A stretch of 64,000 nt of DNA from NCBI GenBank assembly GCA_963798915.1, contig CAWCVB010000002.1, positions 640,001 to 704,000 on the forward strand, read 5' to 3'. Origin of the DNA: an uncultured Gemmatimonadales bacterium (GTDB lineage: Bacteria; Gemmatimonadota; Gemmatimonadetes; Gemmatimonadales; GWC2-71-9). Below, piece by piece: positions 10,293-62,761 of this stretch. The stretch's first letter is position 1. Every line of letters starts with the position of its first letter. The translations under genes were made by a program, and so were the position numbers. The notes below the pieces were generated by a model that was not told where the DNA came from, did no database searches, and worked only from the letters and a program-made list of their open reading frames with translations.

Positions 10293-10383
10293 TTCCTTGA
10301 TTTTGGAGGAGTGACCCGATAACATGTCTCCTCTTGGACCGGGCCCCGGTCCCATGTCTTCATTCCGACAGGAACCGTCTGTC

Positions 10384-11493: not shown

Positions 11494-11505
11494 CCCAAGG
11501 CGATC

Positions 11506-13338
11506 ATGGCAACCTCCGCGGTCTCACACGCTGACCAGATTCCCGACATCCATGCAGAGAAACGGGGTCTCTGGAGCTGGATTACCACGGTCGATCACAA
11601 GCGGATCGGCATTCTCTACGGCGTCAGTGCCTTCACCTTCTTCCTGATCGGTGGCCTGGAGGCGCTGGTCATCCGCTGGCAGCTGGCCCGGCCTGACAGT
11701 ACGGTGGTCACGCCGGAGTTCTACAACGAGCTGTTCACCATGCACGGCACGACCATGATCTTCCTGGCCGTGATGCCATTGAGCGCGATGTTCTTCAATT
11801 TCTTCATCCCGCTCCAGCTGGGCGCCCGCGACGTGGCGTTCCCGCGGCTCAATGCGTTCAGCTACTGGGTGTTCCTGTTTGGCGGGTTGTGGCTCAACCT
11901 GAGCTTCCTGTTCCACGCGGCACCCAACGCAGGCTGGTTCGGCTACGCCAACCTGACCTCAAAGGAGTTCTCGCCCGGGCTCAACATCGATTTCTGGGTC
12001 ATCGGTCTCCAGATCCTTGGCATCTCCTCGCTGGCGGCGGCCGTCAACTTCTTCACCACGATCGTGAACCTCCGGGCCAAGGGCATGAAGTTCATGCGGA
12101 TGCCCATGTTCACGTGGATGAGCTTCATTACCCAGGTCCTGCTCCTGCTGGCCTTTCCGGTCATCACGGTCGCGCTGATCCTGCTGATGTTCGACCGCTT
12201 CTTCGGCACGCATTTCTACATTCCGGCCAGCGGCGGCGACCCGATCCTGTGGCAGCATCTCTTCTGGATCTTCGGCCACCCTGAAGTGTACATCCTCATT
12301 CTCCCGGGCTTCGGCATTGTGAGCGAGGTGCTGCCGGTGTTCGCGCGCAAGCCGCTGTTCGGCTACGCGGCGATGGTCTTCTCCGGCGTGTTCATCGCCT
12401 TTCTTGGCTTCGGAGTCTGGGCGCACCACATGTTCGCCACCGGCATGGGTCCGATTGCCGATACCGCCTTCAGCCTGAGCACGATGCTCATCGCGATCCC
12501 GACGGGCGTCAAGATCTTCAACTGGCTGGGCACGCTGGCGGGCGGCTCACTCCAGATGAAGACGCCGCTGTACTTCGCGATCGGCTTCATTGCGATGTTC
12601 ATCATCGGCGGTCTCTCGGGCGTGATGCACGCGTCGCCGCCGGCCGACCTGCAGCAGACCGACAGTTACTTCGTGGTGGCGCACTTTCACTACGTGCTGT
12701 TCGGCGGCTCCATCTTTGCGCTGACCTCGGGGGCGTATTACTGGTGGCCCAAGATGTTCGGCCGCATGCTGAGCGAGTCGCTGGGCAAGGCCCACTTCTG
12801 GCTCATGCTCATCGCCTTCAACATGACCTTCTTCCCCATGCACTTCGTGGGGCTGCACGGCATGCCGCGGCGGGTGTACACCTACCCCGCCGGTCTGGGC
12901 TTCGAGACCATGAACATGCTGGAGACGGTGGGCGCATTCCTGCTGGCGCTGTCCCAGTTGATCTTCATCTACAACATCATCAAGACCTGGCGCGGCCCTC
13001 GGAACGCGCCGGCCGACCCGTGGAACGGGGCGACACTGGAGTGGGCCATTCCCTCGCCGCCGCAGGAATTCAACTTCCCGGTTGAGCCGGAAGTCCACAG
13101 CCGCGACCCGCTGTGGGAGCAGAAGCGCCAGGAGGGGCGGCTGCCGGAGCCAGTGCGGGTGGGCGGTGCCGGCATTCACCTGCCCAATCCGTCGTTCTGG
13201 CCGCTGCTGACGGCCACGGGCGTCGGCGGCATTTTCGTCTCCCTGATGGTCCTGCCGCATCTGGGCTGGTGGTTTGTGGTCGCCATGGTGCTGTGGTTCC
13301 TGTTCAGCGTGTATAACTGGATCTTTGAACCTGCGTGA
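11506..13338 (+). CDS. ctaD: Cytochrome c oxidase subunit I, A1 type
   Basis: FTMHG, GHPEVY, WAHHM, PTGVKIF (K-channel Lys), AHFHY, GMPRR. Confidence 0.97.
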   Translation: MATSAVSHADQIPDIHAEKRGLWSWITTVDHKRIGILYGVSAFTFFLIGGLEALVIRWQLARPDSTVVTPEFYNELFTMHGTTMIFLAVMPLSAMFFNFFIPLQLGARDVAFPRLNAFSYWVFLFGGLWLNLSFLFHAAPNAGWFGYANLTSKEFSPGLNIDFWVIGLQILGISSLAAAVNFFTTIVNLRAKGMKFMRMPMFTWMSFITQVLLLLAFPVITVALILLMFDRFFGTHFYIPASGGDPILWQHLFWIFGHPEVYILILPGFGIVSEVLPVFARKPLFGYAAMVFSGVFIAFLGFGVWAHHMFATGMGPIADTAFSLSTMLIAIPTGVKIFNWLGTLAGGSLQMKTPLYFAIGFIAMFIIGGLSGVMHASPPADLQQTDSYFVVAHFHYVLFGGSIFALTSGAYYWWPKMFGRMLSESLGKAHFWLMLIAFNMTFFPMHFVGLHGMPRRVYTYPAGLGFETMNMLETVGAFLLALSQLIFIYNIIKTWRGPRNAPADPWNGATLEWAIPSPPQEFNFPVEPEVHSRDPLWEQKRQEGRLPEPVRVGGAGIHLPNPSFWPLLTATGVGGIFVSLMVLPHLGWWFVVAMVLWFLFSVYNWIFEPA

Positions 13339-13407
13339 TGGGTCACTGGTCGAGGGTCATGGGTCACGAGACCCGTGACTCATGACTCATGACTCACGAC
13401 TCATGAC
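13339..13407. repeat. Inverted heptamer tandem-repeat array
   Basis: Left arm GGGTCAY units; right arm TCATGAC/TCACGAC x4-5, able to pair with the left arm. Confidence 0.8.
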
Positions 13408-13418
13408 CGGAGTCCTCA

Positions 13419-14021: not shown

Positions 14022-14031
14022 GGAGATCCGC

Positions 14032-14382
14032 ATGGAAGCGCATGTAGCCGAGGCCGACGCCCACAGCCATCCGGGCCCGGCGCTCTATTTCAAGATTGCC
14101 TTCGTGCTGTTCATCGTGACGGCACTGGAGGTCGCGACCTACGAGCTGTCGCATCGCGGCGGGACACCGCAGTCGATCGTGAAGCCGGTGCTGGTCCCGA
14201 TCCTGCTTGTCCTCAGCGCCGTCAAGTTCGCGCTGGTGGCCATGTTCTACATGCACCTGAAGCAGGACAACAAGCTCTTCTCGGGGCTGTTCGTCTTTCC
14301 ATTGATTATCGCCGCCATCATCGTGGTCTCGCTGATGCTGCTGATGTCCTACCACATGCACTACAACGCAGGCCTGGTGTGA
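14032..14382 (+). CDS. ctaF: caa3-type oxidase subunit IV family
   Basis: Three TM helices, KFALVAMFYMHLKQD; position in operon. Confidence 0.85.
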   Translation: MEAHVAEADAHSHPGPALYFKIAFVLFIVTALEVATYELSHRGGTPQSIVKPVLVPILLVLSAVKFALVAMFYMHLKQDNKLFSGLFVFPLIIAAIIVVSLMLLMSYHMHYNAGLV

Positions 14383-46724: not shown

Positions 46725-48416
46725 TTACTCCTTCCGCCACCCTGGTCCCCGCAGGAACCGCCCCGGCGTCGCGCCGGTATGCTCACCGTCCTTGAGCACC
46801 TGCATGCCGTTCACGAACACGTCCCGGACGCCGGTCGAGTACTGGTGTGGCTTCTCGAAGGTCGCATGGTCAATGATGGTTGCCGGATCGAAGATGACCA
46901 CGTCCGCGAAGTACCCGGGAGCGAGCCGGCCCCGTCGGACAAGCTTGAGATTGGCAGCCGGGAGCGACGTAAGCTTCCGAATCGCCTCGGTCAGCGGCAA
47001 AGCGTGCTGCTCCCGCACGTAGCGGCCGAGCAGCCGGGCCACGTTGCCATAGGCGCGCGGATGGGTACCGGTTCGAAGGAAGACTCCCTCGGTGGCATAG
47101 CTTCCCGCGTCCGACCCGAAGCTCACCCACGGGATCGCCACCTTCTTCCTGACATTCTCTTCTGACATGGTGAAGAAGACACAGCCGACGCGGCTGTCGT
47201 CCTGGATGACCAGGTCCATGGCAGTGGCCTCTGGTGAGGTGCCGCGCAGCCGTGCTACTTCGCCCAGGGTCTTGCCAATCAGGTAGCGCAACGAATCCTG
47301 GCGGAAGCTCACGAGGAGGATGCCGTCCGGGCCGCCCGCGTTGGCAAACGAATTGTCGTAACCGTCCGCGCCACCTCGCATTTCCCGCACGAGGCGCGCA
47401 CGAATGGCGGGATCGCGAAGCCGGGCGACCCACGCATCGTGACCGCCCTCCTGCACCCAGGTTGGCATGGTGGCGTCGAGACCCGTGGAGCTGGCAGGGT
47501 ACGTATACATGTCGGCCGTGATGGCGAGGCCGGCCCGGCGCGCTGAGTCCACCTTGGCGACAATGGAATCGAGTTTGCCCCAGTTGGCCCGGCCCGAAGC
47601 CTTGAGGTGATAGATTTCGGCGGGCACGCCTGCTGCGTCGGCGATGTGAATCAGTTCGTCCAGGGCGTCGAGCACGTGCGAGCCCTCGTCGCGCATGTGC
47701 GAGATGTACATCCCGTGATACTCACCGGCCGCCCGCGCCAATCCGACCAGCTCCTCGGTCGTGGCGTAGTTGTCCGGGGCGTAGATCAGCGAGGAACCGA
47801 CGCCAAGCGCCCCCTCGCGCATCGCCTGGCGCACCAGCTCCTTCATGCGGTCCAGCTCTGCCGGCGTGGCGGGCCGGTTGGCGTAGCCGACCTCGTGGAT
47901 CCTGACGGTGCCCGCACCGACGAACGAGGCCACGTTGGTCGAGATGCCGCGCCGCTCGAGATATTCCAGGTACTCGCCGAGGGTGGTCCAGGGTATTGCA
48001 TACTTGATGTCCTGCTGGCGGGCGATGGCCTCGGCGCGCATCGAATCGGTCAGCGGGCCCATCGAGCTGCCTTCGCCCATGACCTCGAGCGTTACGCCCT
48101 GGCGGATCCCGCCCTGCGAGCGCCCGTCCTGGATCAGGGAAACATTTGCCCAGCTCAGCATGTTGATGAAGCCGGGCGCCACGGCCATGCCCCTGGCATC
48201 GACTTCGGTGGCCGCGCTGCCGGGTGGCACCGGCCCCACAGCGGCAATGCTGTCGCCGATCAGGGCCACGTCGGTCATGACGGGTGGCGATCCGCTGCCG
48301 TCGTACACGGTGCCGCCCCGGATAACGACGTCGTAGCGATGCGCCGCCGCGCTGGTGCCACAACCTGCGATTCCCAGAAGCAGCCCCCCGGACGCCGCCA
48401 GGGCGACGGTGCGCAC
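46725..48416 (-). CDS. N-acyl-D-amino-acid deacylase family amidohydrolase, lipoprotein
   Basis: GGTVYDGSG, APGFIN, SHMRDE, YHLK, GSDAG, HPRAYG; GTG start at 48416 with GGAG. Confidence 0.88.
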   Translation of the reverse strand: MRTVALAASGGLLLGIAGCGTSAAAHRYDVVIRGGTVYDGSGSPPVMTDVALIGDSIAAVGPVPPGSAATEVDARGMAVAPGFINMLSWANVSLIQDGRSQGGIRQGVTLEVMGEGSSMGPLTDSMRAEAIARQQDIKYAIPWTTLGEYLEYLERRGISTNVASFVGAGTVRIHEVGYANRPATPAELDRMKELVRQAMREGALGVGSSLIYAPDNYATTEELVGLARAAGEYHGMYISHMRDEGSHVLDALDELIHIADAAGVPAEIYHLKASGRANWGKLDSIVAKVDSARRAGLAITADMYTYPASSTGLDATMPTWVQEGGHDAWVARLRDPAIRARLVREMRGGADGYDNSFANAGGPDGILLVSFRQDSLRYLIGKTLGEVARLRGTSPEATAMDLVIQDDSRVGCVFFTMSEENVRKKVAIPWVSFGSDAGSYATEGVFLRTGTHPRAYGNVARLLGRYVREQHALPLTEAIRKLTSLPAANLKLVRRGRLAPGYFADVVIFDPATIIDHATFEKPHQYSTGVRDVFVNGMQVLKDGEHTGATPGRFLRGPGWRKE

Positions 48417-48447
48417 CAATTCACTCCACAACGAGGCAGAATCGGTC

Positions 48448-48945
48448 ATGGCCATCAGAGACGGACTCCTTGGAGAATTCGATCACGAGATGAGGAATAC
48501 CCGGAGGACGCTCGAGCGGGTGCCCTTCGAGAAGGCGGACTGGCGGCCGCACGGCAAGTCCCCTACGCTGGGTGGCCTCGCCGTGCATCTGGCGATGCTC
48601 CCGCGCCTGGCCGTGCCGGTGCTGACCGCGACGGAACTGGATATCACCACTGCCGGCAGCAAGGACGCGGCACCGGACAGCACGACGGCCCTGTTGCAGC
48701 GCTTCGACGCCTGCACAGCGGCCGCCCGGACGGCGCTGCTCGGACTGGATGACGACGATATCCGCACGCCCTGGACCTTGCGGGTCGGTGAGCGCGAACT
48801 CTGGACGATGCCCCGGCTCGCGGCCTACCGTGCGTTTGTGATGAATCATCTGGTGCATCACCGGGCACAGATTGGCGTGTACCTCCGGCTCAACGACGTG
48901 GCGGTCCCGGCCATCTATGGCCCGTCGGCCGATGAGGCGGTCTGA
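48448..48945 (+). CDS. DinB-family protein
   Basis: WRPHGKS, LAVHLA, HLVHHRAQIGVYLR, YGPSADE. Confidence 0.9.
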   Translation: MAIRDGLLGEFDHEMRNTRRTLERVPFEKADWRPHGKSPTLGGLAVHLAMLPRLAVPVLTATELDITTAGSKDAAPDSTTALLQRFDACTAAARTALLGLDDDDIRTPWTLRVGERELWTMPRLAAYRAFVMNHLVHHRAQIGVYLRLNDVAVPAIYGPSADEAV

Positions 48946-49391
48946 GCTTCGCTGACCCGGCGCGCAAAGTCATTCCAGAAATCTTCCGTAAATGAACGCA
49001 CCACGCCCTCCAGCAGGCGGGCGCCCAGCCCGGCCAGGGCGCCTTGCACTTCTCCCTCGGCGTTCCAGTGGAGCCGTTGGCGATCGGCAGCGAGCGTCTC
49101 GATGCGGACGCGCGATCGCACCTCGACCTCCGTGCCCGGCGCCGTGCCCGTGGCGGTAAGGCTGGCGTGTTCCTGGGGCACGAGGTCGTGCATGCGCACA
49201 TGCATCACGATATGAAGCTTGAAGACGGAAACGCCCAGGCCCAGATGCAGGTCGTAGCGTTCCGGCGAGAGCACCTCGACGTCATCCACACCTGGCGCCG
49301 AGGCGGCGACAAACCGCGGATCGAGCAAGGCGCGCCAGACCCGGTCGCGGGTGGCGGTGACGTCTGGCGAGCCCGCGAAGTGCAGTTTCAT
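48915..49391 (-). CDS. CoxG/SRPBCC-family protein
   Basis: VWRALLDP...PG; GALAGLGARLL. Confidence 0.8.
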   Translation of the reverse strand: MKLHFAGSPDVTATRDRVWRALLDPRFVAASAPGVDDVEVLSPERYDLHLGLGVSVFKLHIVMHVRMHDLVPQEHASLTATGTAPGTEVEVRSRVRIETLAADRQRLHWNAEGEVQGALAGLGARLLEGVVRSFTEDFWNDFARRVSEAQTASSADGP

Positions 49392-49450: not shown

Positions 49451-50596
49451 ATGCGCGTAGCCATCTTCTCCGAAGTCTACTGGCCGATGGTCAGTGGCGT
49501 GGGGGTGACCCTCCGGCGCCTGGCCGACAGCCTGCTGGCGCGGGGCCACGCCGTGCGGGTCTATTCCGCATCCTACGCGCTGCCGCATTCCGGCGATCGG
49601 CCGGAAGTCTGCCGCTCCCCCAGCCGGCCCTTCTTTCTGTACCCCGACGTGCAATGGGCCTTCCCTCGTCATCGGACGCTGGTAGCCGATGTCGCGCGGT
49701 TTCAGCCGGACGTTGTTCACCTGGCCACCGAATTTGCCATGGGATACGCCGGCGCCAGGGTGGCGCGCCAGCTGGCCCTTCCGGTGGTGGCCTCCGCCCA
49801 TACCGATTACGAACAGTACGCCTCCCGTTATCGGGTGGACTGGGCGGTCCGCGCTGGTTGGCGCTATCTCCGCTGGTTTTACGGCCAGGCCGAAACCGTG
49901 CTTTGTCCGACGCGAATCTATGAGGAGCACCTGCATGCTCGAGGCGTGACCAACACCGGGATCTGGTCGCGCGGGGTGGACGCCCGCGTCTTTCATCCCG
50001 ACTTCCGCTCCAACGCGTTTCGCGGGGCGCTGGGCGCCCGCGAAGGCGACCTGGTGGTAACCTACATCGGGCGGATGGCGCGGGAAAAGAATCTGGAGCT
50101 GCTGCTCGAGGCGTGGACGCTGCTTCGGGCGAGGCATCCGTCGGCCCGGCTGGTGCTGGTGGGGGAGGGTCCCCTGGAGGAGCAGATCGCGCAACGCGCC
50201 CTCCCAGGTGTGCACCTCACCGGCCTCCTCACCGGCCGTGACCTCGCCGAAGCCTACGCCTCGGCCGACCTGTTCGCATTTCCCAGCGTCACCGAGACAT
50301 TCGGCAATGTCCTGCTCGAGGCAATGGCGTCAGGACTCCCGTCGGTGGTGGCAGCGGCCGGTGGCGTGCTGGAGTTCGCGCGCCACGGCCGGAATGCCTG
50401 GCTGGTCGAGCCGAGCTCGGCCGACGCCCTCGCTCACGGCATGGACCGCCTGCTGACCGACCATGAACTTCGCCACGGACTCGGCCGGGGCGCGCTCGCA
50501 ACGGCGGCGGCGCGGGGATGGGAAGGGGTGGATGACCAGCTTCTGCAGGACTACCAGGAGGTGGCGGAGCGCTTTGCCGCTCGGCAGGCGGCATAG
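49451..50596 (+). CDS. GT4 glycosyltransferase
   Basis: MRVAIFSEVYWPMVSGV, GRMAREKN, TETFGNVLLEAMASG. Confidence 0.93.
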   Translation: MRVAIFSEVYWPMVSGVGVTLRRLADSLLARGHAVRVYSASYALPHSGDRPEVCRSPSRPFFLYPDVQWAFPRHRTLVADVARFQPDVVHLATEFAMGYAGARVARQLALPVVASAHTDYEQYASRYRVDWAVRAGWRYLRWFYGQAETVLCPTRIYEEHLHARGVTNTGIWSRGVDARVFHPDFRSNAFRGALGAREGDLVVTYIGRMAREKNLELLLEAWTLLRARHPSARLVLVGEGPLEEQIAQRALPGVHLTGLLTGRDLAEAYASADLFAFPSVTETFGNVLLEAMASGLPSVVAAAGGVLEFARHGRNAWLVEPSSADALAHGMDRLLTDHELRHGLGRGALATAAARGWEGVDDQLLQDYQEVAERFAARQAA

Positions 50597-51413
50597 CGGG
50601 CCCGCTCACTCGACGATCCCTCCGATCGATCCACTGCACGAAAAGCATACCCGCTGTCACCAGGTAGATGAGCCCGGCCGGTATCCACATGATCAGGCCC
50701 GCCACCTGCTGGTCCTGCATTGGTGTCAGGCCCCAGGCGGCAGTCGCCGCTGCATGCACGGCATACCACGGTGATCGCGAAAGCGTCAGCAGCGCACCGA
50801 GCAGCCCGCACTGGAGCCCGGCGGTAAAGACGTACAGGATCCCAAGCCCCCGGTCCATGCGGCGTCCGGGATGGCGAAAGAGCAGCCACCAGAAGGCGAA
50901 GCCGGTGCAGAGGAAGGATGCGTGCTCGAGCGCATGAATGGTCTCATGGCGAACTGCCGCATCGTAGGCGCGCGGCAGGTGCCAGCTCCAGAGCACGATG
51001 GCGCTGGCGACCCAGACGCTGGCCGGCCGCAGGGCCTGCCGGACCAGCGCGCGGAGCCCGTCGGTGGCTCGCCACCACCTGCCCAGCCAATGCCGCCATC
51101 GTCTCGGTAGTGCCCAGAGCGAGATATGAACTGGCGCTGCCATGACCAGGAGCGGCGGCGCCACCAGCAACAGCAGCAGGTGCTGCACCATGTGCGCGGA
51201 GAAGAGCACGTGACCCAGTTCGTCGAGGGGGGAGAGCAGCGCCAGAACCAGTACCATCAGTGCCGCCGCCGCACTGACGACGCGCCACATTGCCACCCCC
51301 CTGCCGCGGCCGGCCCGGTGCCAGAGACGCGTGATACCGGTGCTGTAGACGGCCGCGCCGCATGCGAGCCCGGCCATCACACCAGGATGGAAGTCCCAGC
51401 CGATCGTCAACAC
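50289..51413 (-). CDS. ctaG: Second Caa3_CtaG-type assembly protein; 3' end runs about 300 nt into the convergent GT4 gene
   Basis: LFSAHMVQHLLL, WHLPRAY, HALEH, DQQVAGLIMWIP; homology ends near 50620. Confidence 0.75.
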   Translation of the reverse strand: MLTIGWDFHPGVMAGLACGAAVYSTGITRLWHRAGRGRGVAMWRVVSAAAALMVLVLALLSPLDELGHVLFSAHMVQHLLLLLVAPPLLVMAAPVHISLWALPRRWRHWLGRWWRATDGLRALVRQALRPASVWVASAIVLWSWHLPRAYDAAVRHETIHALEHASFLCTGFAFWWLLFRHPGRRMDRGLGILYVFTAGLQCGLLGALLTLSRSPWYAVHAAATAAWGLTPMQDQQVAGLIMWIPAGLIYLVTAGMLFVQWIDRRDRRVSGPAMPPAERQSAPPPPGSPAEAGHPPLPIPAPPPLRARPGRVRGEVHGRSAGGPCRERGRRPSSARPARHSGRGARTPARHRPLPPPTGVLTPLPRAGHCRMSR

Positions 51414-51754
51414 AGCGGCGCCAGCACAAGGGCAATCGCAAAGAAGACAAGCCCGCCAAGGAACAGCAGGTTCAGGAATATTCCAGCTCGTGCCATGAAG
51501 CGGATGCGCCGGGCGTGCGGGCCATCAGCCTGACGGAAGGCACGGACAGACGCCCGGAAGGACCACGCGCTCGCCGCGGTCGCCGCGATCGTAATTCCGG
51601 CTAGCAGCCACCATCCCGGGCCGAACCGCGACATGCCTGCCGGTGATCGCAGGCACCGGGCGGCTCCGATGGAGACGACAAGCAACAGGTCGCCACTCCA
51701 GGCCGCCGCAGCACCGAATGCCGCCAGCCAGAGCGTGCGCGCGCTGGTACTCAC
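51407..51754 (-). CDS. Small 3-TM membrane protein in oxidase operon 2
   Basis: GTGA coupling to subunit III; two Cys; hydrophobic. Confidence 0.7.
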   Translation of the reverse strand: MSTSARTLWLAAFGAAAAWSGDLLLVVSIGAARCLRSPAGMSRFGPGWWLLAGITIAATAASAWSFRASVRAFRQADGPHARRIRFMARAGIFLNLLFLGGLVFFAIALVLAPLC

Positions 51755-52350
51755 AGGCCGAATCGCGGGCTCAGGTACAGTGACGTGAAGACCGCGATCC
51801 ACACGGCATCAACGAAATGCCAGTACAGCGCCGCATTGTGGAGGTAGTGTCGATGCGTCCGATCCAGCTGGCCTCGCAAGGCCATGGCGAGCACAAAGCC
51901 CAATACGAAGAGACCCACCAGTACGTGCGTCCCATGCAGCCCGGTGACGATGAAGAACACCGATCCGTATGCGTGGCTCGCAGGGGTAAAGGTCTGCTTG
52001 CTGTATTCGACACCCTGCAAGGCCAGGAAGGAGGCACCAAGGATGATCGTCGCGGTCAGGCCCAGCCATGACCGCTGCAGCTGCCCGCGATCCAGGTTCC
52101 GCTCCGCCCACCAGAGCGCAACGCTGCTGGCAAGCAGGAGCCCCGTGTTGGGGAGTGCAATGGTGAGTTCCGGCGGCCCGCCTGGGGGCCACGGTGTGGC
52201 GGACCGTGCCGCCAGGTAGAAGTAGCTGAAGAGCAGGTAGGCAAAGAGCGATGCTTCCGTCACGATCAGGAGCAGCATGCCCCACTGGCCCGGCGGGTGC
52301 GGCTCGGCGGCCTTTCCGACCGGCATGGAGGCGAGCGTGGAAGCCGTCAT
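51751..52350 (-). CDS. ctaE: Heme-copper oxidase subunit III (copy 2)
   Basis: IVTEASLF, TGLHGTHV, YWHFVDAVW. Confidence 0.92.
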   Translation of the reverse strand: MTASTLASMPVGKAAEPHPPGQWGMLLLIVTEASLFAYLLFSYFYLAARSATPWPPGGPPELTIALPNTGLLLASSVALWWAERNLDRGQLQRSWLGLTATIILGASFLALQGVEYSKQTFTPASHAYGSVFFIVTGLHGTHVLVGLFVLGFVLAMALRGQLDRTHRHYLHNAALYWHFVDAVWIAVFTSLYLSPRFGL

Positions 52351-54275
52351 GGCGCGCGCTCCGGCGACATCCGCTCACCACGATCCTCGAGATGCACGGC
52401 ATGTGCTCCGGGCCAGAGCCACGCGCCGACACACACTGCGCTGGCCACCGCTCCAATCACCGCCAAGACCCATTGACTGAAGAGCAGTGCGTAGAACAGC
52501 ACCAGGAGGGCGACGGCCAGGTAGAACGGCCAGAGGCTGTCGCCTGGCATCGGGAGGATGGCAGTCGGCTCGGCGTCCAGGGCCGAGGTGCTGACCGCCT
52601 GGTGGCCATCGTCGAGCGCCGGGCCCTGGTCCAGGACCGTGCCGCCGCCGCCCAGGTCTGCCTCCCAGAGCGGATGACGGCTCGCCACGCGCGGGATGCA
52701 GGCAAAGTTGTAGGGCGGCGGCGGCGATGGCGTCGACCATTCCAGTGTGCCCGCGCCCCAGGGATTGCCCTCCGCGGGCACGCCATGATGCCGGCTTCGC
52801 CAGACATTCACCAGGAAGAGCAGGACGCCGAGGGCGAAGGCAAAGGATCCCGCGGTCACCACCAGGTTCCACGGACCCCACCCCAGCCCGGCGGGATAGG
52901 TGTAGATCCGGCGGGGCATGCCCAGGAAGCCCAGGATGTGCATGGGGAAGAAGCCCACGTTGAACCCGAGCAACATGAGCCAGAAACTCCACCGGCCCAG
53001 CCGCTCCGACATCATGCGGCCGGTCATCTTGGGGAACCAGTAGTGCACCGCAGCAAAGACCGGGAAGAGATTGATGCCGACCAGCACGTAGTGCAGGTGG
53101 GCAACCACGAAATACGAATCGGTGGCCTGCCAGTCGAACGGCACCGCCGCCGTCATGGAGCCGCTCACTCCCCCGATGACAAAGAGGATGATGAACCCCG
53201 CCAGGAAGAGGAACGGCGTCCGGAAGACGGGCCGGCCCTGCCAGATGGTCGCGATCCACGCGAATACCGACACCGCGCTGGGCACCGCGATCACCATGCT
53301 GGCGCCGCTGAAGAAGGAAAGTGAGACGGTCGAGAGTCCGGTGGCGAACATGTGGTGCACCCACACGCCAAAGCCAAGAATGCCGACGGCCACCGTGGCG
53401 AGGGCGACGTAGGCGTAACCGACAAGCGGCCGGCGACAGAACACCGGGATCATGTCCGATGCCATGCTCATGGCTGGCAGGACGATGATGTAGACCCAGG
53501 GATGCCCGAAGATCCAGAAGAGGTGCTGCCAGAGCAGCGGCTGTCCGCCATGCGCCGCGTCGTAGAAGTGGGTCCCGAAGTGGCGATCGAGGTACAGGAA
53601 CAGACAGGCGGCCGTGAGTGAGGGGAGCGCGAACAGGATCGAGACCGATGCCGTCACCGTGCCCCAGAGCAGGATGGGCAGGCGGTCGAGCGACATGCCC
53701 GGCGCCCGCATCTTGAAGAACGTGACCACGAAATTGATGGCGCCCACTGTCGTGGACATGCCGAGGAAGATCATCCCCAGGGCAAAGAAATCGATGTTGG
53801 GTCCCGACAGGTAGCTGGAAGAGGCGAGCGGCACATAGTTGAACCAGCCGGCATTCGGCGCCAGCCCCAGCGGGAAGCTGGTATAGAGAAAGATGCCGGC
53901 GGCCAGGAAGAGCCAGTAGCTCAGCGCATTCACCCTGGGGAAGGCCATGTCGCGCGCGCCGATCATCAGTGGCCAGAGGTAGTTGCTGAAGCCCGACAGG
54001 ATCGGCAGCGCAAACAGGAAGAGCATGGTGACGCCGTGCATCGTGAACAACTGGTCATACGCCGCCGGCGAGACGAGCGATGCGTCCGCATGGGCAAGCT
54101 GGATGCGCATCACCAGCGCCTCGAGTCCGCCCAGCACGAGGAAGGCAAAGGCCGTCACCAGGTAGCGAATGCCGATGACCTTGTGATCCACGCAGGCGAG
54201 TGCCCCGAGGGCCCCGGGCGGCGTTTCCCACAGGCGATGAAGCCGTTCGCGCGCGTCGAGGCACGGCGCCGTCAC
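52347..54275 (-). CDS. ctaD: Heme-copper oxidase subunit I (copy 2), atypical
   Basis: All six His ligands and the cross-link Tyr present (FTMHG, GHPWVY, WVHHM, AHLHY); GMPRR. Confidence 0.95.
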   Translation of the reverse strand: MTAPCLDARERLHRLWETPPGALGALACVDHKVIGIRYLVTAFAFLVLGGLEALVMRIQLAHADASLVSPAAYDQLFTMHGVTMLFLFALPILSGFSNYLWPLMIGARDMAFPRVNALSYWLFLAAGIFLYTSFPLGLAPNAGWFNYVPLASSSYLSGPNIDFFALGMIFLGMSTTVGAINFVVTFFKMRAPGMSLDRLPILLWGTVTASVSILFALPSLTAACLFLYLDRHFGTHFYDAAHGGQPLLWQHLFWIFGHPWVYIIVLPAMSMASDMIPVFCRRPLVGYAYVALATVAVGILGFGVWVHHMFATGLSTVSLSFFSGASMVIAVPSAVSVFAWIATIWQGRPVFRTPFLFLAGFIILFVIGGVSGSMTAAVPFDWQATDSYFVVAHLHYVLVGINLFPVFAAVHYWFPKMTGRMMSERLGRWSFWLMLLGFNVGFFPMHILGFLGMPRRIYTYPAGLGWGPWNLVVTAGSFAFALGVLLFLVNVWRSRHHGVPAEGNPWGAGTLEWSTPSPPPPYNFACIPRVASRHPLWEADLGGGGTVLDQGPALDDGHQAVSTSALDAEPTAILPMPGDSLWPFYLAVALLVLFYALLFSQWVLAVIGAVASAVCVGAWLWPGAHAVHLEDRGERMSPERAP

Positions 54276-55195
54276 CGCAGCCCCCTGAGGTATCGGTTTA
54301 CATCCGTCGTCTCTTGATCGGTGAGTCCGGTGCGGGGCATGAGCACTCCCGGCTTGATGGAATCGGGAGCCGAGAGCCACCGGTCGAGTGCCGCTGCCGT
54401 GTTTGGAAGGACGCCAGCGGCAATGGTGGCCCGGCTGGCCAGGTGAGTCAGGTCCGGACCTGCGTCGCCGTCAGCCGCAGAGCCTCGGATCGTGTGGCAC
54501 GCGGCGCAGCCTCGCTCGAAGAACAGGCTGTCCGGGGCCGTGCGCGCTGGCTCGCGCTGGCGGTGTTCCCAGCGGGCAAAGCCCGCCCCGTCATCCACGA
54601 CCACCGCGAGCCGCATGTTGGCGTGCGCCAGCCCGCAGAACTCCGCACACTGTCCATAAAGGCGCCCTGCCGAGTCGGCCTCGATCCACATCGTGTTGGT
54701 CTGGCCAGGAATGAGGTCGGTCTTCCCGGCGAGCGCCGGCACCCAGAAGCTGTGGATCACGTCGCCAGACAGGAGCTGGAGGCGCACCCGCATGCCGGCG
54801 GGGATATGGAGCTCGTTGGCGGTGACGAAGTCCGTCGCGCCGGACGGCGCCAGGTATTCGAGTTTCCACCAGTAGCGATAGCCGGTGACGCGAACGGTCA
54901 ACCCGGGATCGCGACCGCCACGGGCATAGTCGGTGAGCACGGTCAGGGTGTAGGCAAAGATGCCGAGGAGAATGACCACCGACACGCCAGCGCCGATCAC
55001 GATCCACCGACGTCCCGCGGCCTCGCCGTCGTCCGAGATGCCGACCGCGGGCACGCGGCGGCGGAACAGCGCCATCAGCAGGAGGCCCGCGACCACCAGT
55101 ACTACTACAGTGGCCGTGGCGGCGAGCACCCAGCTCAGCCGCCCGATGGCGAGCGAGGAAGCGCTGCCGTGCGACACGATCGTTGGCGCGCTCAT
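54272..55195 (-). CDS. ctaC: Oxidase subunit II with fused cytochrome c (copy 2)
   Basis: DVIHSFW, CAEFCGLAHANM, CAACH. Confidence 0.93.
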   Translation of the reverse strand: MSAPTIVSHGSASSLAIGRLSWVLAATATVVVLVVAGLLLMALFRRRVPAVGISDDGEAAGRRWIVIGAGVSVVILLGIFAYTLTVLTDYARGGRDPGLTVRVTGYRYWWKLEYLAPSGATDFVTANELHIPAGMRVRLQLLSGDVIHSFWVPALAGKTDLIPGQTNTMWIEADSAGRLYGQCAEFCGLAHANMRLAVVVDDGAGFARWEHRQREPARTAPDSLFFERGCAACHTIRGSAADGDAGPDLTHLASRATIAAGVLPNTAAALDRWLSAPDSIKPGVLMPRTGLTDQETTDVNRYLRGLR

Positions 55196-56610
55196 GGCCC
55201 CTGGCCTGTCGGCTCACGCCGCCGTGTCACAAGAAAGGCTCGCAAGGTGTCGACCTGGCCTGCCGAGAGCACCTTGCCGAACGCCGGCATGTTGTGGCCG
55301 CCATTCTCGATCCATTGGGCGATCTGGGGCCCGGGCAGGCGATCACCCACATGGGTGAGGTCTGGGCCGCGGATTCCTCCCAGGCCAGCGATGCGATGGC
55401 AGTTCTCGCATCCCCGGCTGTGAAAGAGCACCGCACCGCGCTGCACGGCCACGTCGCTTGATGCGACAACGGAGTCCGGCAAGAGCGGGGCGTCGAAATG
55501 GGGTGACCACGGAGCCCTGACCCCGAGCCGCCAGAAGACGCCGACACCCGCGACGATGACCAGGACGGACACGAGCGCCCACGGCCGTCGCCGGACATGG
55601 CGTTCGCCCCGGTTGAAGAGAATGGGGAGCAGCAGCAGGACGAGGCCGCCCGTGAGCGGCAGGATCCAGATGAGGTACTCCTCGGACCCATGCGGCAGTA
55701 CCGCGAGGATGGCGAAGTACCAGAGCAGGTACCAGTCCGGCCGTGGCTGGGCATCAACCAGCGAAGGATTGGGCGGCTTGCCGAGAGGCTTGGGGCCAAT
55801 GACAATCGCAAGCCCGAGCACGATCAGCACCACCACGAGCGCAAAGACCACGTCGCGCCAGGCCGCGTCCGGCCAGTAGGGGACGCCGCGCTCGTTCAGG
55901 AGCTGCTGGTAGTCCGCCTGGTAGGTGGCAGGGTCCACCGGCCGGCCCGGCTCCGCGGGCTCCGAGATGCCATGCCGGATCACGAGATACAGGTGGAGCC
56001 CGATCAGCAGAATGATGAGCCCCGGTACGACGAAGACATGGTACGCAAAGAGGTGGCTCAGCGTCGCGGCGCCGATTCGCTCTCCCGCGAGGATGAAACG
56101 TGCAAGGGCGTGCCCGAAGAACGGCACCCGTCCCGCCTGTTCGGCGGCCACCACGGTGGACCAGACGCCGTCCTGGTCCCACCGAAGCACCTGACCACTG
56201 AATCCCATCACGATGGTCAGGCCGAGGAGCACGACGCCCGAAATCCAGTTGAGCTCACGCGGGAACTTGAACGATCCCGTCAGGAACACCCGGATCGCGT
56301 GCACGCCGATCAGCAGGATCATGGCGGACGCGCCAAAGTAGTGCAGGCCGCGGAGCACGCGCCCGAGCAGTGCCTGATGGGAGATGTACTGGAGGCTCTG
56401 GTAGGCATCCCCGGCTGCGGGGACATAGATGGTGGCCAGGGCGATGCCGGTCACAACCTGCAGCAGGAACGCCGCCAGCACGGCACTGCCGAAGACGTAT
56501 TTCCAGCGTGCGCCGGGCGGTACCTTGTGCCGAAGCACCGGAAGGATGTTCTCCCGGAACCCGATCCTGCGATCGAGCCAGTCGAGCAGGCGACGCCACG
56601 CGCCGCTCAT
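55192..56610 (-). CDS. qcrB: Cytochrome b of a bc complex with fused C-terminal cytochrome c
   Basis: RGLHYFGAS, VHAIRVFLTG, PRELNW, PDWY Qo motif, CENCH. Confidence 0.92.
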   Translation of the reverse strand: MSGAWRRLLDWLDRRIGFRENILPVLRHKVPPGARWKYVFGSAVLAAFLLQVVTGIALATIYVPAAGDAYQSLQYISHQALLGRVLRGLHYFGASAMILLIGVHAIRVFLTGSFKFPRELNWISGVVLLGLTIVMGFSGQVLRWDQDGVWSTVVAAEQAGRVPFFGHALARFILAGERIGAATLSHLFAYHVFVVPGLIILLIGLHLYLVIRHGISEPAEPGRPVDPATYQADYQQLLNERGVPYWPDAAWRDVVFALVVVLIVLGLAIVIGPKPLGKPPNPSLVDAQPRPDWYLLWYFAILAVLPHGSEEYLIWILPLTGGLVLLLLPILFNRGERHVRRRPWALVSVLVIVAGVGVFWRLGVRAPWSPHFDAPLLPDSVVASSDVAVQRGAVLFHSRGCENCHRIAGLGGIRGPDLTHVGDRLPGPQIAQWIENGGHNMPAFGKVLSAGQVDTLRAFLVTRRREPTGQGP

Positions 56611-57122
56611 TCGATGATGGGAATCGGCCGAGTCCAGACCTCCACCTGGCCATTCCGGACTCGAACGGGATGATGTTTCAGCGGTTCAGGGGGAGGACCG
56701 GCGGCAACCTGGCCATCACGGTAGAAGACGCCACCGTGGCAGGGGCACATGAAGAGGTCGGCATCGGGCAGCCAGCGCACCGGGCAGCCGAGGTGCGTGC
56801 AATCCAGCGAGAAGGCGGTGAAGCTCCCGTCCTGTTCGCGGCGGAGCCAGGCGCCCATTTCGGATGCGACGCCGGACCAACGCTCGGGCGACGGGTCGCG
56901 GAAAGTCACTTCCACCGTGGCGCCGGCGGAAAAGCCGGCCTCCGGACCCACCGGGCGCCACACCCCGCGGCGTGCGCGCACGATCGGCCCCAGGAGCGTC
57001 GCCACTGGCGGCAGTGCCACCACTGCAGCGGCGAGCGCCCCCAGTGCCAGTGAGATCCGGGAAAGAAATGCACGCCGCTCGACCCCATCGTGGGTCTCGC
57101 GGCCTGGGGAATTCATGAGCAT
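56607..57122 (-). CDS. qcrA: Rieske iron-sulfur subunit
   Basis: Tat motif ERRAFL; CTHLGC; CPCHGG. Confidence 0.93.
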   Translation of the reverse strand: MLMNSPGRETHDGVERRAFLSRISLALGALAAAVVALPPVATLLGPIVRARRGVWRPVGPEAGFSAGATVEVTFRDPSPERWSGVASEMGAWLRREQDGSFTAFSLDCTHLGCPVRWLPDADLFMCPCHGGVFYRDGQVAAGPPPEPLKHHPVRVRNGQVEVWTRPIPIIE

Positions 57123-57262: not shown

Positions 57263-59083
57263 TCACCGCGCGGCTGGCGCCCGGGGTGTCCCGTCACGCG
57301 ACGGCTCCCGGCAGTGCTCGAGATCGAATGCGGTGTTGGTCAGCGCAATATGGGAGAGTGCCTGCGGGAAGTTGCCGCAGAGGCGGCCCTCAGCCGTGTC
57401 ATACTCCTCTGCCAGGAGGCCCACATCATTGGCCAGCCCGAGCACCCGCTCGAAGAGGGCAGTCGCGTCGTCGAGCCGCCCCATGAACGCAAGATCGCTC
57501 GCCATCCAGCAGCTGCAGGCAATGAAGGCGCCCTCGGCACCGGGAAGTCCGTCATCTGACGCCGAGGTGTCGTACCGCAGGATCAGCCCATCGCGCGACA
57601 GGTTGCGCTGGATGGCCTCGACGGTGCGCCGAACCCGTTCGTCGTCGTGCGGCAGGAAGCCGACCAGCGGCATGAGCAGGAGCGACGCGTCGAGCGCATC
57701 GGTGTCGTAGGCCTGAATGAAGGTGCCGCGTCGCCTGCTGTAGCCGCGCTGGCACACCTCGGCATGGATGGCGTCACGAAGCTGACGCCACCGGTCAAGC
57801 GGCGCGTTGGTGCCCAGTTGGGTCGCGATACGGATCGCGCGGTCGAACGCCACCCACGCCATGACCCGGGAGTGCGTGAAGTGCTGCCGCTCGCCGCGGA
57901 TCTCCCAGATGCCCTCGTCGGGCTCCTGCCAGACCTGCTCCAAGTGGCCGACCAGCCCGCAGATCAGCGCAAAGTCCAGTTCGCGCGAAGCGCCCAGTCC
58001 GCCCAGCGCATGGAAAAAGGCATCGGTGACCTCGCCATAGATGTCGAGCTGCAGCTGGCCAGCCGCGGCATTGCCGATGCGCACCGGCTTCGAGCCCGCG
58101 TATCCGGACAGCCAGTCGACCGTCCACTCGGGCACGTTCCGCCCGCCCCGAATATCGTAGAGGACCTGGACCTGATCGGGGCTGCCGGCCACGGCGCGGA
58201 GGAGCCAGCGCATCCAGTCACGCGCCTCCGCATGGCGGCCGCCATTGACCAGCGCGAGCAGCGTGAAGGTCGCATCGCGCAGCCAGCAGTAGCGGTAGTC
58301 CCAGTTGCGCGGACCGCCGAGCTGCTCCGGCAGAGACGTCGTGGGCGCCGCAACGATGCCGCCGGTAGGGAGGAATGTCAGCGCCTTGAGGGTGATGAGC
58401 GAGCGCTCCACCGCGGGACGATAGCGCCCCTGGTAGCTGCAGTTCTCGACCCACCGGGTCCAGAAGTCACGCGTCTCGGCGAGCGCCGCATCCGGATCAA
58501 TGGGGCGGGGCGTTTCCAGGTGAGAGGCGCCATAGGTCAGGACGAACGGTACGCACTCATCGGGGCCCACGGTGAATTCCGCATGGGTCCGCAGGTCCTC
58601 ACTGGTGAGCGGAACCGGGGTTCGCAGGACCACCAGGTCCGGGCCACCCACCGCTGTCCACCCTGACTCCTCGTGACGAACCCAGGGCACCAGGCTTCCG
58701 TAACTGAACCGCACGACCAGCTCCATGCGCATTGGCACCCGGCCGCGGATCCCGCGCACCAGGCGCACTACATCGGAGTTCTCGCCGCGGAGCGGCATGA
58801 AGTCCAGCAGCTGGACCGTGCCGTCGGGCGTCTCGAAGGTCGTTTCGAGTATGAGCGAGTGAGCTTCGTACCGGCGGTGGGTGGCGGTGATTTCGCCGGC
58901 GGGGCCCAGGCGCCAGAACCCGTTGTCGTCATCGCCGAGCAGGCGGCCAAAACAGGAGGTGGAACTGAAGTCGGGCCAGCAGAGCCAGTCGATGCTGCCG
59001 TCGCGCCGGACCAGCGCGGCGGTCTGGCAGTCACCGATCAGGGCATAATCTTCAAGTGGTGCGCTCACGTCGCCTCGCGTCAT
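57263..59083 (-). CDS. Glycoside hydrolase family 15 (trehalase/glucoamylase-like)
   Basis: LEDYALIGDCQTAALV, RNWDYRYCWLRD, PDEGIWE, LLAEEYD, GNFPQALSH. Confidence 0.94.
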   Translation of the reverse strand: MTRGDVSAPLEDYALIGDCQTAALVRRDGSIDWLCWPDFSSTSCFGRLLGDDDNGFWRLGPAGEITATHRRYEAHSLILETTFETPDGTVQLLDFMPLRGENSDVVRLVRGIRGRVPMRMELVVRFSYGSLVPWVRHEESGWTAVGGPDLVVLRTPVPLTSEDLRTHAEFTVGPDECVPFVLTYGASHLETPRPIDPDAALAETRDFWTRWVENCSYQGRYRPAVERSLITLKALTFLPTGGIVAAPTTSLPEQLGGPRNWDYRYCWLRDATFTLLALVNGGRHAEARDWMRWLLRAVAGSPDQVQVLYDIRGGRNVPEWTVDWLSGYAGSKPVRIGNAAAGQLQLDIYGEVTDAFFHALGGLGASRELDFALICGLVGHLEQVWQEPDEGIWEIRGERQHFTHSRVMAWVAFDRAIRIATQLGTNAPLDRWRQLRDAIHAEVCQRGYSRRRGTFIQAYDTDALDASLLLMPLVGFLPHDDERVRRTVEAIQRNLSRDGLILRYDTSASDDGLPGAEGAFIACSCWMASDLAFMGRLDDATALFERVLGLANDVGLLAEEYDTAEGRLCGNFPQALSHIALTNTAFDLEHCREPSRDGTPRAPAAR

Positions 59084-59342
59084 GCGTGAATGGTCGTGCC
59101 ATCACGAGGGAAGTCCCAGATCGAAACGGATGGCGGCGCCCGGCAGGCGGCGGCATGTGGCGGAGGACACGGTCACACCATGCGACATGCCTTATGTTGC
59201 AAAAGTATGCCGTTGCGGCGGTCCATGCATGCAGCCTGCAGTCACTGTATTTCCGCCCGAACGGCCATCTGACGACTGATTTCCGGTCAGGCCGCCTGGC
59301 ATGACTGCAGCCGCGGCCGCCGGACGTGAAGGGATATTCCGC

Positions 59343-59726
59343 ATGGCAACCCCACCCGGTCGCACTCGGTGGGCCATCGCCGAGGGCTACATCCCCGGCT
59401 GGAGCACCGGTCCGGAGCCGCAGTTCACCAGCCACGAGACCGCCTGCATCCTCAACGCCGGGCCGACGCCGGCCCACGTCACGATCACGGTGTACTTCAG
59501 CGATCGCGACCCTGCAGGCCCCTATCGCCTGACCGTGCCGGCGGCGCGCACCCGGCACATTCGCTTCAACGATCTTACCGATCCCGAGCCGATTCCGCGG
59601 GACACCGACTACGCCAGCGTCCTCGAGTCGGACGTCCCGGTGGTGGTCCAGCACACCCGCCTTGATTCGCGACAGGCCGAGAACGCACTGCTCTCGACGG
59701 TTGCCTATGCCGACAGCCCGTCCTGA
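59343..59726 (+). CDS. Anabaena sensory rhodopsin transducer (ASRT) family protein
   Basis: WAIAEGYIP, SHETACILN, RTRHIRFNDL, VQHTRLDSRQ. Confidence 0.88.
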   Translation: MATPPGRTRWAIAEGYIPGWSTGPEPQFTSHETACILNAGPTPAHVTITVYFSDRDPAGPYRLTVPAARTRHIRFNDLTDPEPIPRDTDYASVLESDVPVVVQHTRLDSRQAENALLSTVAYADSPS

Positions 59727-59801
59727 CTCGCCAGTCAGGCCGGGCCTTGAACTCCTGCCGTGTGCCGCCGGGGTGGTACGCCGCGGGGAAAGGTCACAGC
59801 A

Positions 59802-61631: not shown

Positions 61632-62738
61632 GTCCCGCTCCCTCGGCAGGTGACCCGCTCGTCCAGCGCGTCACCGTGAGCTGCTTCACCGTGCCAACGG
61701 ACGCACCGGAATCCGATGGTACCCTGACGTGGGAGTCCACCACGATCGTTGTCGTCGAAGTGACCGGGGGTGACACCGCCGGGCTCGGCTACACCTACGC
61801 GCACCCCGCGGCAGGACTCCTGATCCAGTCGACGCTGGCAGAGGTCGTGACGGGCCGGAGCGCGCTGGCGGTCCCCGCCGCCTGGCAAGCCATGGTGCAC
61901 GAGGTGCGCAACCTCGGTCGACCGGGGCTCTGCTCCATGGCCATCGCGGCGGTGGACAGCGCCCTCTGGGATCTCAAGGCCCGGTTGCTCGGCCTCCCGC
62001 TGGTCACGCTGCTGGGACAGATGCGCCAGGCCGTTCCCCTCTATGGCAGCGGGGGATTTACCTCCTACGATGAACAACGACTCCGCGACCAGCTCGGCAG
62101 CTGGGCGTCTGACGGATTCTCGATGGTCAAGATGAAGGTCGGGCGCGACCCGGCGGCCGATCCGGCGCGGGTGCGATCTGCGCGTGAAGCCATCGGGCCG
62201 TCGACAGCGCTGTTCGTTGACGCCAACGGTGCCTACCGGCGAAAGCAGGCTCTCGAGCTGGCGATGCACTTTGCCGAGAGCTGGGGTGAGCTGGTTCGAG
62301 GAGCCGGTGTCCTCCGATGACCTGGCCGGCCTCCACCTGCTGCGCGATGCCGGACCTTCCGGCATGGCCATCGCGGCAGGCGAATACGGGTGGGGATTGC
62401 CGTATTTCCGGCAGATGCTCGACGCCGGTGCCGTCGACATCCTGCAGGCCGATGCGACGCGCTGCGCGGGCATCACCGGGTTCATGCGGGTGGGTGCGCT
62501 CTGTGAGGCCTGCGGCATCCCGCTCTCGGCCCATACCGCACCGGCGCTGCATCTGCACCCGTGCTGCGCCCTGCCATCCATCATTCACCAGGAATTCTTT
62601 CATGATCACGTGCGCCTGGAGCGGATGCTGTTCGACGGCATCACCGAGCCTCGCGCCGGAACTCTCGCCCCCGACCTGTCCCGCCCCGGCATGGGGCTCG
62701 AGCTGCGACGCGCCGACGCCCGGCGCTTCGCGGCGTGA
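61628..62738 (+). pseudogene. Mandelate racemase/enolase-superfamily enzyme with frameshift near 62279 (probably an indel error)
   Basis: KMK and VDANG in one frame; WFEEP, AGEY, QAD and SAH in another. Confidence 0.85.
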
Positions 62739-62761
62739 CAGCGGGGAGGAAGGCTGTTCGC

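Follow-up and report, generated by a model that had tools for sequence, protein, structure and literature searches.

The window analysed here, 64,000 nucleotides from an uncultured Gemmatimonadales bacterium (contig CAWCVB010000002.1, positions 640,001 to 704,000), encodes on its minus strand the subunit I of an A-family heme-copper oxidase in which the positions of Glu286 and Lys362 (Rhodobacter sphaeroides numbering) are occupied by tryptophan and serine. To our knowledge, Glu286 has been treated as the indispensable proton branch point of the A-family, the only accepted natural substitute being the Tyr-Ser pair of the A2 enzymes. The tryptophan represents a third, non-ionisable solution at this site, fixed in a large multi-phylum clade that also lacks the lysine of the K-channel. 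From the residues and gene arrangements described below we propose, with a probability of about one half, that these Trp-type proteins are working caa3-type cytochrome c:O2 oxidoreductases, a mobile A-family subfamily with an accessory role and altered proton handling. Every redox ligand and the His-Tyr cofactor site have been retained in them, and a subunit II with CuA and cytochrome c, a subunit III and the assembly factor CtaG travel with them.

The subunit I gene (product P0001; Table 1) starts with a GTG codon that overlaps the TGA stop codon of the subunit II gene. The protein scored 697.5 bits against the NCBIfam model TIGR02891 CtaD_CoxA, above the cut-off of 670.75, which identifies it as an A-family subunit I. 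Its top PDB matches were actinobacterial aa3 subunit I chains (E 1e-146), and its AlphaFold2 model had a mean predicted local distance difference test score (pLDDT) of 85.5 and a predicted template modelling score (pTM) of 0.88. All histidine ligands of the two hemes and CuB are present (H80, H258, H307, H308, H393 and H395; position numbers refer to P0001 unless another organism is named), together with the cross-link Tyr262, the arginine pair R455/R456 and the D-channel entry motif RDMAFPRVN (residues 108-116). The preliminary description of this gene, made from the letters of the window alone, was therefore right to call these elements intact, and it had placed the two substituted codons, within GHPWVY and PSAVS, exactly where they are found. 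Its statement that no compensating A2-type Tyr-Ser pair is present also agrees with helix VI, which reads F256-G257-H258. The paralogue that it noted at position 11506 (P0002) does keep both residues, in GHPEVY and PTGVK, and aligns with P0001 over 519 residues without gaps at 51% identity. Since the step from a glutamate codon (GAR) to TGG requires at least two base changes, a single miscalled base is no explanation for the tryptophan. Residue 385 is threonine in both P0001 and P0002, where most A-family enzymes carry the Mg/Mn-site histidine (R. sphaeroides H411); since both paralogues have it, this change is not specific to the Trp-type.

In a word-indexed protein search, taken to the best 120 of 7,999 scored proteins, all 119 homologues of P0001 (P0004-P0122; 64-79% identity; Gemmatimonadota names) carried the HPWVY motif, and lysine was absent from the K-channel site in each. 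Together with P0001 they form the W group of 120 sequences, in which the histidine ligands and Tyr262 are invariant, as they are in the W-type loci, and in which the pair before His258 has Phe in 118 and Gly in 119 sequences. An exhaustive search of cluster representatives returned HPWVY in 10 of the best 150, and a scan of one genome per species gave 80 loci with Trp (53), Glu (18), Asp (8) or Leu (1) at position 260. With 11 further loci from the phylum of the window, tryptophan was found in 64 of 64 W-type loci. The hosts are Gemmatimonadales, one Bryobacteraceae genome and many Proteobacteria, among them the cultured Paraburkholderia phytofirmans, P. graminis, P. acidipaludis, Caballeronia, Burkholderia pseudomultivorans, Bradyrhizobium sp. 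ORS 375, Nitrosospira multiformis, Methylocystis sp. JAN1, Massilia horti, Rhodanobacter and Roseovarius spongiae. The expectation that such paralogues exist in other bacteria was thus borne out. That the substitutions might be peculiar to this assembly, through decay or error, was the doubt raised at the outset, and it is contradicted by the tryptophan in 119/119 homologues, in 53/53 W-type loci of the species scan and in 11/11 relatives fetched from the same phylum (at least 56% identity). A decaying copy or an assembly error can be practically dismissed, since nothing beyond the oddity of the residues speaks for it, whereas the frame is open and translationally coupled to subunit II, two base changes are needed, and tryptophan is invariant over at least four phyla at 52-80% identity.

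Within the phylum of the window, 12 of 151 sampled genomes, this one included, had a match of at least 56% identity (two unpublished genomes, G057 and G097, are counted as non-holders), and all 12 holders also carried a second A-family match at 44-52% identity. The Trp-type was absent from the only congeneric genome in the sample. Since so few genomes hold the gene, each beside another A-family copy, and since one locus (L013 of Pararobbsia alpina, n=1) is plasmid-borne, the Trp-type oxidase is a patchy accessory gene. As part of the joint best explanation, we take the Trp-type to be a subfamily of its own among the A-family heme-copper oxidases, one that moves by horizontal transfer.

The phylogeny that had been suggested as a check supports a single origin of the tryptophan. 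In a FastTree analysis of 117 rows, the Trp-type sequences formed one clade of 25 rows (support 100), nested in a clade of 48 rows that also had support 100; the remaining rows of that clade carry Gln or His in place of the lysine. A quick IQ-TREE search (LG+G4, 75 rows, support by the Shimodaira-Hasegawa-like approximate likelihood ratio test, SH-aLRT) again gave one Trp clade, of 28 rows (SH-aLRT 99), with a sister group (support 94) of nine actinobacterial sequences that carry Glu, Asp or Leu together with Gln. Both groups belong to a superclade of 57 rows without the lysine (support 100), which stands beside ordinary A1 enzymes, including P0002. On this tree the change between Trp and non-Trp occurs once, as does the change between Lys and non-Lys. 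Three W-type loci have Gln at the lysine site, two of them being L040, a basal branch of the Trp clade, and L005, which lies deeper within it. These three loci fit what would be the simplest order of substitutions, in which Lys was first replaced by Gln, Glu was then replaced by Trp, and a small residue finally took the place of Gln.

The sister oxidases within the superclade, here called Q-type, comprise proteobacterial fusions of subunits I and III and actinobacterial second oxidases. Like the Trp-type, they have lost both Lys362 and the glutamate of subunit II and carry Arg37 and Ser326. They differ from it at position 260, which is still Glu or Asp. The proteobacterial members (P0126-P0148, P0273-P0391, L061, L062, L074 and L080) are mostly fusions of about 840 amino acids with Gln in place of Lys and Glu286 kept. 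The actinobacterial non-Trp group (loci L034-L073) keeps the canonical D-channel asparagines, has Gln at the lysine site, and has Asp at position 260 in eight cases.

Residues of the proton pathways were compared in an alignment of 120 W-type, 111 Q-type, 39 A1 and 11 A2 sequences, the 80 loci being aligned separately. At position 336, the lysine site, the W-type sequences have Ala (60), Ser (44) or Gly (10) and the 53 W-type loci Ala (37), Ser (10), Gln (3) or Thr (2), but never Lys. The proposed check for conservation of both replacements therefore came out differently at the two sites, the tryptophan being invariant whereas the serine is one of several residues found in place of the lysine. 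Of the K-channel set Lys354, Thr351, Ser291 and Tyr280 (P. denitrificans numbering), P0001 has Ser336 for the lysine and Ser333 for the threonine, while Ser273 and Tyr262 are present; the change of R. sphaeroides Thr359 to Ser333 is found in 119 of the 120 W-type sequences, Ser273 is kept, and position 339 is mostly Ala. Furthermore, the K-channel entry glutamate of subunit II, at the start of transmembrane helix 2, is gone in all 39 W- and Q-type sequences available (38 recovered from the 80 loci plus that of the window), the subunit II of the canonical paralogue reading LEIIWT at this site. Judged by these residues, the K-pathway is dismantled in both subunits I and II.

The D-channel gives the opposite picture, and here the preliminary description, which had the oxidase lacking both canonical proton-channel residues, was correct about the missing glutamate and lysine but did not bring out that the rest of the D-channel is intact. 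The set given for Paracoccus denitrificans is Asp124, Asn199, Asn113, Asn131, Tyr35, Ser134, Ser193 and Glu278 (PMC3084760), of which P0001 has seven (D109, N181, N98, N116, Y38, S119, and T175 for Ser193), the eighth, Glu278, being Trp260. D109, N98, N116, N181, S174 and Y38 are each found in 120 of 120 W-type sequences, T175 in 118, T176 in 117 and S119 in 115, and the W-type loci agree (N98 46/52, N116 52/52, N181 53/53, S174 53/53, Y38 52/52). Only the terminal glutamate is missing from the channel, and the remainder is intact. In the proteobacterial Q-type branch the three D-channel asparagines are replaced by Val/Met/Ile, by Ser/Gly and by Glu, and new, buried glutamates are found at positions 94 (105/111), 172 (108/111) and 181 (106/111). 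Since these residues could be replaced in the sister Q-type, their retention in the Trp-type is not forced by the fold.

This retention also bears on whether the Trp-type has converged on a design like that of the B-family, in which a single hydroxyl-lined channel at the K position (Asp274, Ser273, Ser333, Ser326, Thr294 and Tyr262) would carry all protons and the D-channel would be kept for structure. The W-type sequences show little or no variation at Ser273, Ser326, Ser333 and Thr294, and Asp274 is found in 113 of 120; position 294 is Glu in 15 of the 27 sister (actinobacterial, non-Trp) loci, which marks the site as functionally active; and the alternative K-channel of the B-type is described as made of Thr, Ser and Tyr (PMC3084760). 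We nevertheless regard such a design as improbable, since the lysine position has become an unconserved Ala, Ser or Gly with mostly Ala at 339, the entry glutamate of subunit II is gone, and eight D-channel positions have stayed near-invariant despite their replacement in the sister Q-type, which speaks for a D-channel that is still used.

We therefore favour the proposal that the Trp-type is a working oxidase whose retained D-channel would continue to admit protons from the cytoplasm, since this channel is strictly conserved where the sister group has replaced it. Since no carboxylate is present at the end of the channel, protons would have to reach the active site along a wire of water and hydroxyl groups, without a carboxylate shuttle. 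Proton pumping is probably reduced or lost, because the enzyme lacks the glutamate that normally divides protons between chemistry and pumping, while the charge separation that comes from the chemistry would remain. The following points weigh against this proposal. Non-ionisable replacement of Glu286 nearly abolishes turnover in laboratory A1 enzymes, so that its simple replacement by a water wire is not trivial. Six of the 52 W-type loci carry Val, Ile or Phe instead of Asn98, and P0001 itself has Val297 where most of the W clade has Thr. Finally, B- and C-family oxidases pump without an equivalent of Glu286 (PMC11214002), and the loss of pumping does not therefore follow from the loss of the glutamate.

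The residues that set the Trp clade apart are Ser94, Ser97, Trp101, Thr294, Thr375, Ile401 and Asn402 (Table 1). Ser94 and Ser97 supply additional hydroxyl groups, and on the alignments Thr294, Thr375 and Asn402 arise together with the tryptophan. Position 402 is Ala (23), Met (3) or Ser (1) in the non-W loci. In the W-type alignment the membrane core has gained no invariant Asp, Glu, His or Tyr. An acidic residue on helix II, which reportedly compensates in an engineered I112E enzyme, was considered and rejected, the corresponding position being an unconserved Ser, Leu or Ala.

Ile401 and Asn402 lie two to three residues beyond the position of Ser425 on helix X (bovine Ser382), in a segment described as lying between the hemes, as moving with redox state and as coupled to Glu286-linked proton transfer (PMC4550891). 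This position makes Asn402 the best candidate for a compensating change. A full proton pump was also considered, using a route other than Glu286 and Lys362, either a water-only gate above the D-channel or an H-pathway-like route under heme a that involves the helix X changes of Gly to Ile401 and Ala to Asn402. Both changes arise with the tryptophan just past this redox-mobile, Glu286-coupled segment, a water channel gated by helix X has been argued to be conserved (PMC12901375), and the B- and C-family precedent above is also in its favour. The bridging histidine of the H-pathway (R. sphaeroides His456, PMC12901375), however, maps by offset to residue 430, which is Ser in the query and Asn in the clade consensus, and the membrane part of the W clade has gained no invariant ionisable residue, and we consider a full pump of this kind unlikely. 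We hold it equally doubtful that the Trp-type might still translocate protons with neither the K-channel lysine nor an ionisable residue where the D-channel ends, gated through a water wire or through a route on the helix X/heme a side marked by Asn402.

The preliminary description had also allowed for another substrate, which we find less likely, since the CuB histidines and the cross-link tyrosine, marks of O2 reductases, are invariant. Changed chemistry, such as NO reduction or a peroxidase-like or sensing function, would remove the need for cytoplasmic protons and could thus account for the absence of both textbook channel residues. A related aa3-type oxidase adjacent to xoxF3 in Methylocella tundrae T4 (T4_00359-61), which may or may not be of the Trp-type, is reported to be 17- to 60-fold up under anoxic methanol plus N2O (10.1101/2024.01.15.574570), and would fit the same idea. 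Heme-copper NO reductases (NORs: cNOR, qNOR and newer families) have no cross-link tyrosine, and the motifs given for them, H-X-Arom-X-E and H-H-X-Arom-Arom-X17-E (PMC3084760), are unlike H258-P-W-V-Y262 and H307-H308-M-F-A of P0001, in which the tyrosine is invariant. In addition, newer NOR families are described as derived from the B-family and lacking the tyrosine, and the three CuB histidines with the cross-link tyrosine as marking O2 reductases and not NO reductases (PMC11214002), while the conserved D-channel implies cytoplasmic proton uptake. Changed chemistry is consequently very improbable. The other classes fit no better: P0001 reads GHPWVY where A1 enzymes have Glu in xGHPEV, and F256-G257 where A2 enzymes have Tyr-Ser in YSHPxV, and it has the D-channel residues that B-family enzymes lack, with A1 enzymes as its nearest relatives in the tree.

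Compared with canonical A1 aa3 and caa3 oxidases (P. denitrificans, R. sphaeroides, Mycobacterium smegmatis CtaD 6ADQ and P0002), the Trp-type has the same fold, TIGR02891 membership, six histidines, tyrosine, arginine pair, CuA subunit II, subunit III and seven of eight D-channel residues. It differs from them in Glu278/286 being Trp, Lys354/362 being Ala, Ser or Gly and Thr351/359 being Ser, in lacking the subunit II entry glutamate, and in the invariant Thr294, Thr375 and Asn402. A2 enzymes (Thermus caa3 2YEV, Rhodothermus caa3) likewise have no helix VI glutamate and keep the rest of the D-channel, but in them a Tyr-Ser pair one turn below substitutes for the function of the glutamate and the K-channel lysine is kept, whereas the Trp-type has Phe-Gly at the position of the pair and no lysine. 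Natural A-family enzymes that lack both the K-channel lysine and the subunit II glutamate, as the Trp-type does, are also described from acidophilic iron oxidisers and their relatives, as K-less A2 oxidases (Degli Esposti et al., 10.1101/2020.03.01.968255, PMC8239418). Identity with those enzymes was rejected, since they are of the YS type, are described as deep-branching and have the lysine changed to a hydrophobic residue such as Ile, whereas the Trp-type branches beside ordinary A1 enzymes and has no YS.

In agreement with the preliminary description, which knew of no biochemical characterisation, our literature searches found no biochemical study of the Trp variant. Nor did they find a description of the substitution or of the variant itself, with subscription journals and bioRxiv supplements lying outside the searches, as did the supplements of PMC10875860, PMC8239418 and PMC11214002, whose datasets could contain the clade. 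The XoxF3 gene cluster and lysine-less A-type oxidases are already known, whereas the Trp substitution was not found in papers.

Genes for a XoxF-like pyrroloquinoline quinone (PQQ) dehydrogenase flank 32 of the 64 Trp-type loci and none of the 27 non-W loci. Most of these proteins have the DYD motif, which we take to be the mark of lanthanide-type enzymes, and in Methylocystis genes for a PQQ dehydrogenase, a binding protein and a cytochrome c precede the cox genes, in that order. In XoxF3 systems the cox genes are described beside xoxF3, xoxG and xoxJ (Voutsinos et al. 2024, PMC10875860, with Keltjens et al. 2014 cited there), and the Trp clade is probably the oxidase of these published clusters. 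The word proton has no occurrence in the main text of PMC10875860, in which proton channels are not discussed. The window has the order of XoxF3 systems (PMC10875860), with CoxII, CoxI, CoxIII, a hypothetical protein of about 110-130 amino acids and CtaG. It differs from them in that this genome (84.8% complete) is without a PQQ dehydrogenase match and the cluster is joined to Rieske and cytochrome b-c genes. Electrons would reach the Trp-type oxidase from periplasmic c-type cytochromes, the source being, we propose, the XoxF-like PQQ dehydrogenase in half of the loci and the adjacent Rieske/cytochrome b-c complex in this genome.

If the enzyme turns over, models of the A-family must account for proton delivery in the absence of any shuttling carboxylate; should it pump as well, the gating model itself would be called into question, and the clade would be a natural experiment able to discriminate between D-pathway and H-pathway pumping models. 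Since the clade is present in culturable Paraburkholderia, Methylocystis, Nitrosospira and Bradyrhizobium, the question can be put to the test at the bench. For soil and methylotroph physiology, the oxidase would be the one wired to lanthanide-type XoxF dehydrogenases, and its coupling efficiency would set the energy yield of the pathway.

Table 1. Features of the Trp-type oxidase, its operon and the canonical paralogue in the window (residues in P0001 numbering; counts are for W-type sequences and W-type loci).
Feature	Position	Strand	Basis or remark
Rieske iron-sulfur protein, first operon gene	56607..57122	-	NCBIfam Rieske/PetC-type, E 8e-15 to 4e-12, below curated cut-offs
Cytochrome b (b6-like N part and C part) with C-terminal c-type cytochrome fusion	55192..56610	-	PF00033, PF13631, PF00032, PF13442
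Subunit II, CuA site and fused cytochrome c (caa3-type)	54272..55195	-	TIGR02866 CoxB, 161.6 bits, cut-off 147.7
Subunit I P0001, 642 amino acids, Trp-type A-family heme-copper oxidase, two-helix C-terminal extension	52347..54275	-	TIGR02891, AlphaFold2 model
Subunit III, 199 amino acids	51751..52350	-	matches to NCBIfam models of subunit III (E 1e-27 to 2e-21), none reaching its cut-off
131-amino-acid membrane protein between subunit III and CtaG	51407..51802	-	no Pfam/NCBIfam match
Caa3_CtaG-type assembly factor	50289..51413	-	PF09678, 199.6 bits
Trp260 codon TGG, site of R. sphaeroides Glu286	53496..53498	-	within I-F-G-H-P-W-V-Y
Ser336 codon TCG, site of R. sphaeroides Lys362	53268..53270	-	within A-V-P-S-A-V-S-V-F
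Asp109, D-channel entrance (Asp132), retained	53949..53951	-	D 120/120; D51, E1 in 52 loci
Thr294, helix VII, clade signature	53394..53396	-	T 120/120, 53/53 loci
Thr375, helix IX P-side end, clade signature	53151..53153	-	T 120/120, 52/52 loci; canonical Leu
Asn402, helix X, clade signature	53070..53072	-	N 120/120, 51/52 loci; canonical Ala, Val or Ser
Ser94, clade signature			118/120 sequences, 50/52 loci; canonical Gly or Ala
Ser97, clade signature			117/120 sequences, 51/52 loci; canonical Gly or Ala
Trp101, clade signature			120/120 sequences, 43/52 loci
Ile401, clade signature			118/120 sequences, 47/52 loci; canonical Gly
Canonical A1 paralogue of subunit I, P0002 (GHPEVY, PTGVK)	11506..13338	+	own caa3 cluster 10324-15254

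The operon runs on the minus strand in the order Rieske protein, cytochrome b-c, subunit II, subunit I, subunit III, 131-amino-acid protein and Caa3_CtaG. Subunit II matches Pfam COX2 and Cytochrom_C, and its motifs CAEFCGLAHANM and CAACH can be read. Over the loci the conserved core consists of subunits II, I and III, often with CtaG, plus another c-type cytochrome, and subunit III follows subunit I in most of them. The 131-amino-acid protein gave weak tblastn matches at the same position in three loci (L037, L075 and L094), and is probably a fast-evolving small subunit. A link to Rieske and cytochrome b genes as a trait of the clade was rejected, as none was found within about 7 kb in the 11 other W-type loci of the phylum. 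Cytochrome b lies downstream in 16 of the 27 non-Trp loci, most of them actinobacterial, where Rieske and cytochrome b genes are usual.

In this genome (G000), 84.8% complete, the operon cytochrome b is the single PF00033 match, and neither a PQQ dehydrogenase nor a cytochrome bd was found. Since the sole cytochrome b found sits in the Trp-type operon, the canonical caa3 oxidase must have another feed. A search of sequencing runs listed one DNA run, with a small share of words, and no RNA run. The genome has three heme-copper oxidases, the third subunit I (G000:C10:37399-38748, locus L003; 569 amino acids, PF00115 254.6 bits) lying beside a small cupredoxin/COX2-like protein and being probably that of a B-family-like enzyme.

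Downstream of the oxidase operon are genes for CoxG/SRPBCC-family and DinB-family proteins (48915-49391 on the minus and 48355-48945 on the plus strand), which do not recur in the 80 loci. On the other side the operon is flanked by four genes, at 59760-61631 (+), 57263-59083 (-), 59301-59726 (+) and 61628-62320 (+), whose families are a PoxB-like thiamine-diphosphate enzyme (NF006129, 1043 bits), a GH15 trehalase-like hydrolase, an ASRT-family protein and an enolase-superfamily protein. The enolase-superfamily open reading frame is just 230 amino acids long, covering MR_MLE_N and the start of MR_MLE_C (61628-62784 (+) region), and is followed in another frame by one of 155 amino acids with no family match, and the gene may thus be frameshifted or split. 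Homologues of the thiamine-diphosphate enzyme at 52-66% identity occur in 10 of the 80 loci (7 Burkholderiaceae and 3 Actinomycetota), and homologues of the GH15, ASRT and enolase-type proteins lie beside W- or Q-type cox clusters in 4, 2 and 6 of them. The flanking genes look like a common, transferable neighbourhood.

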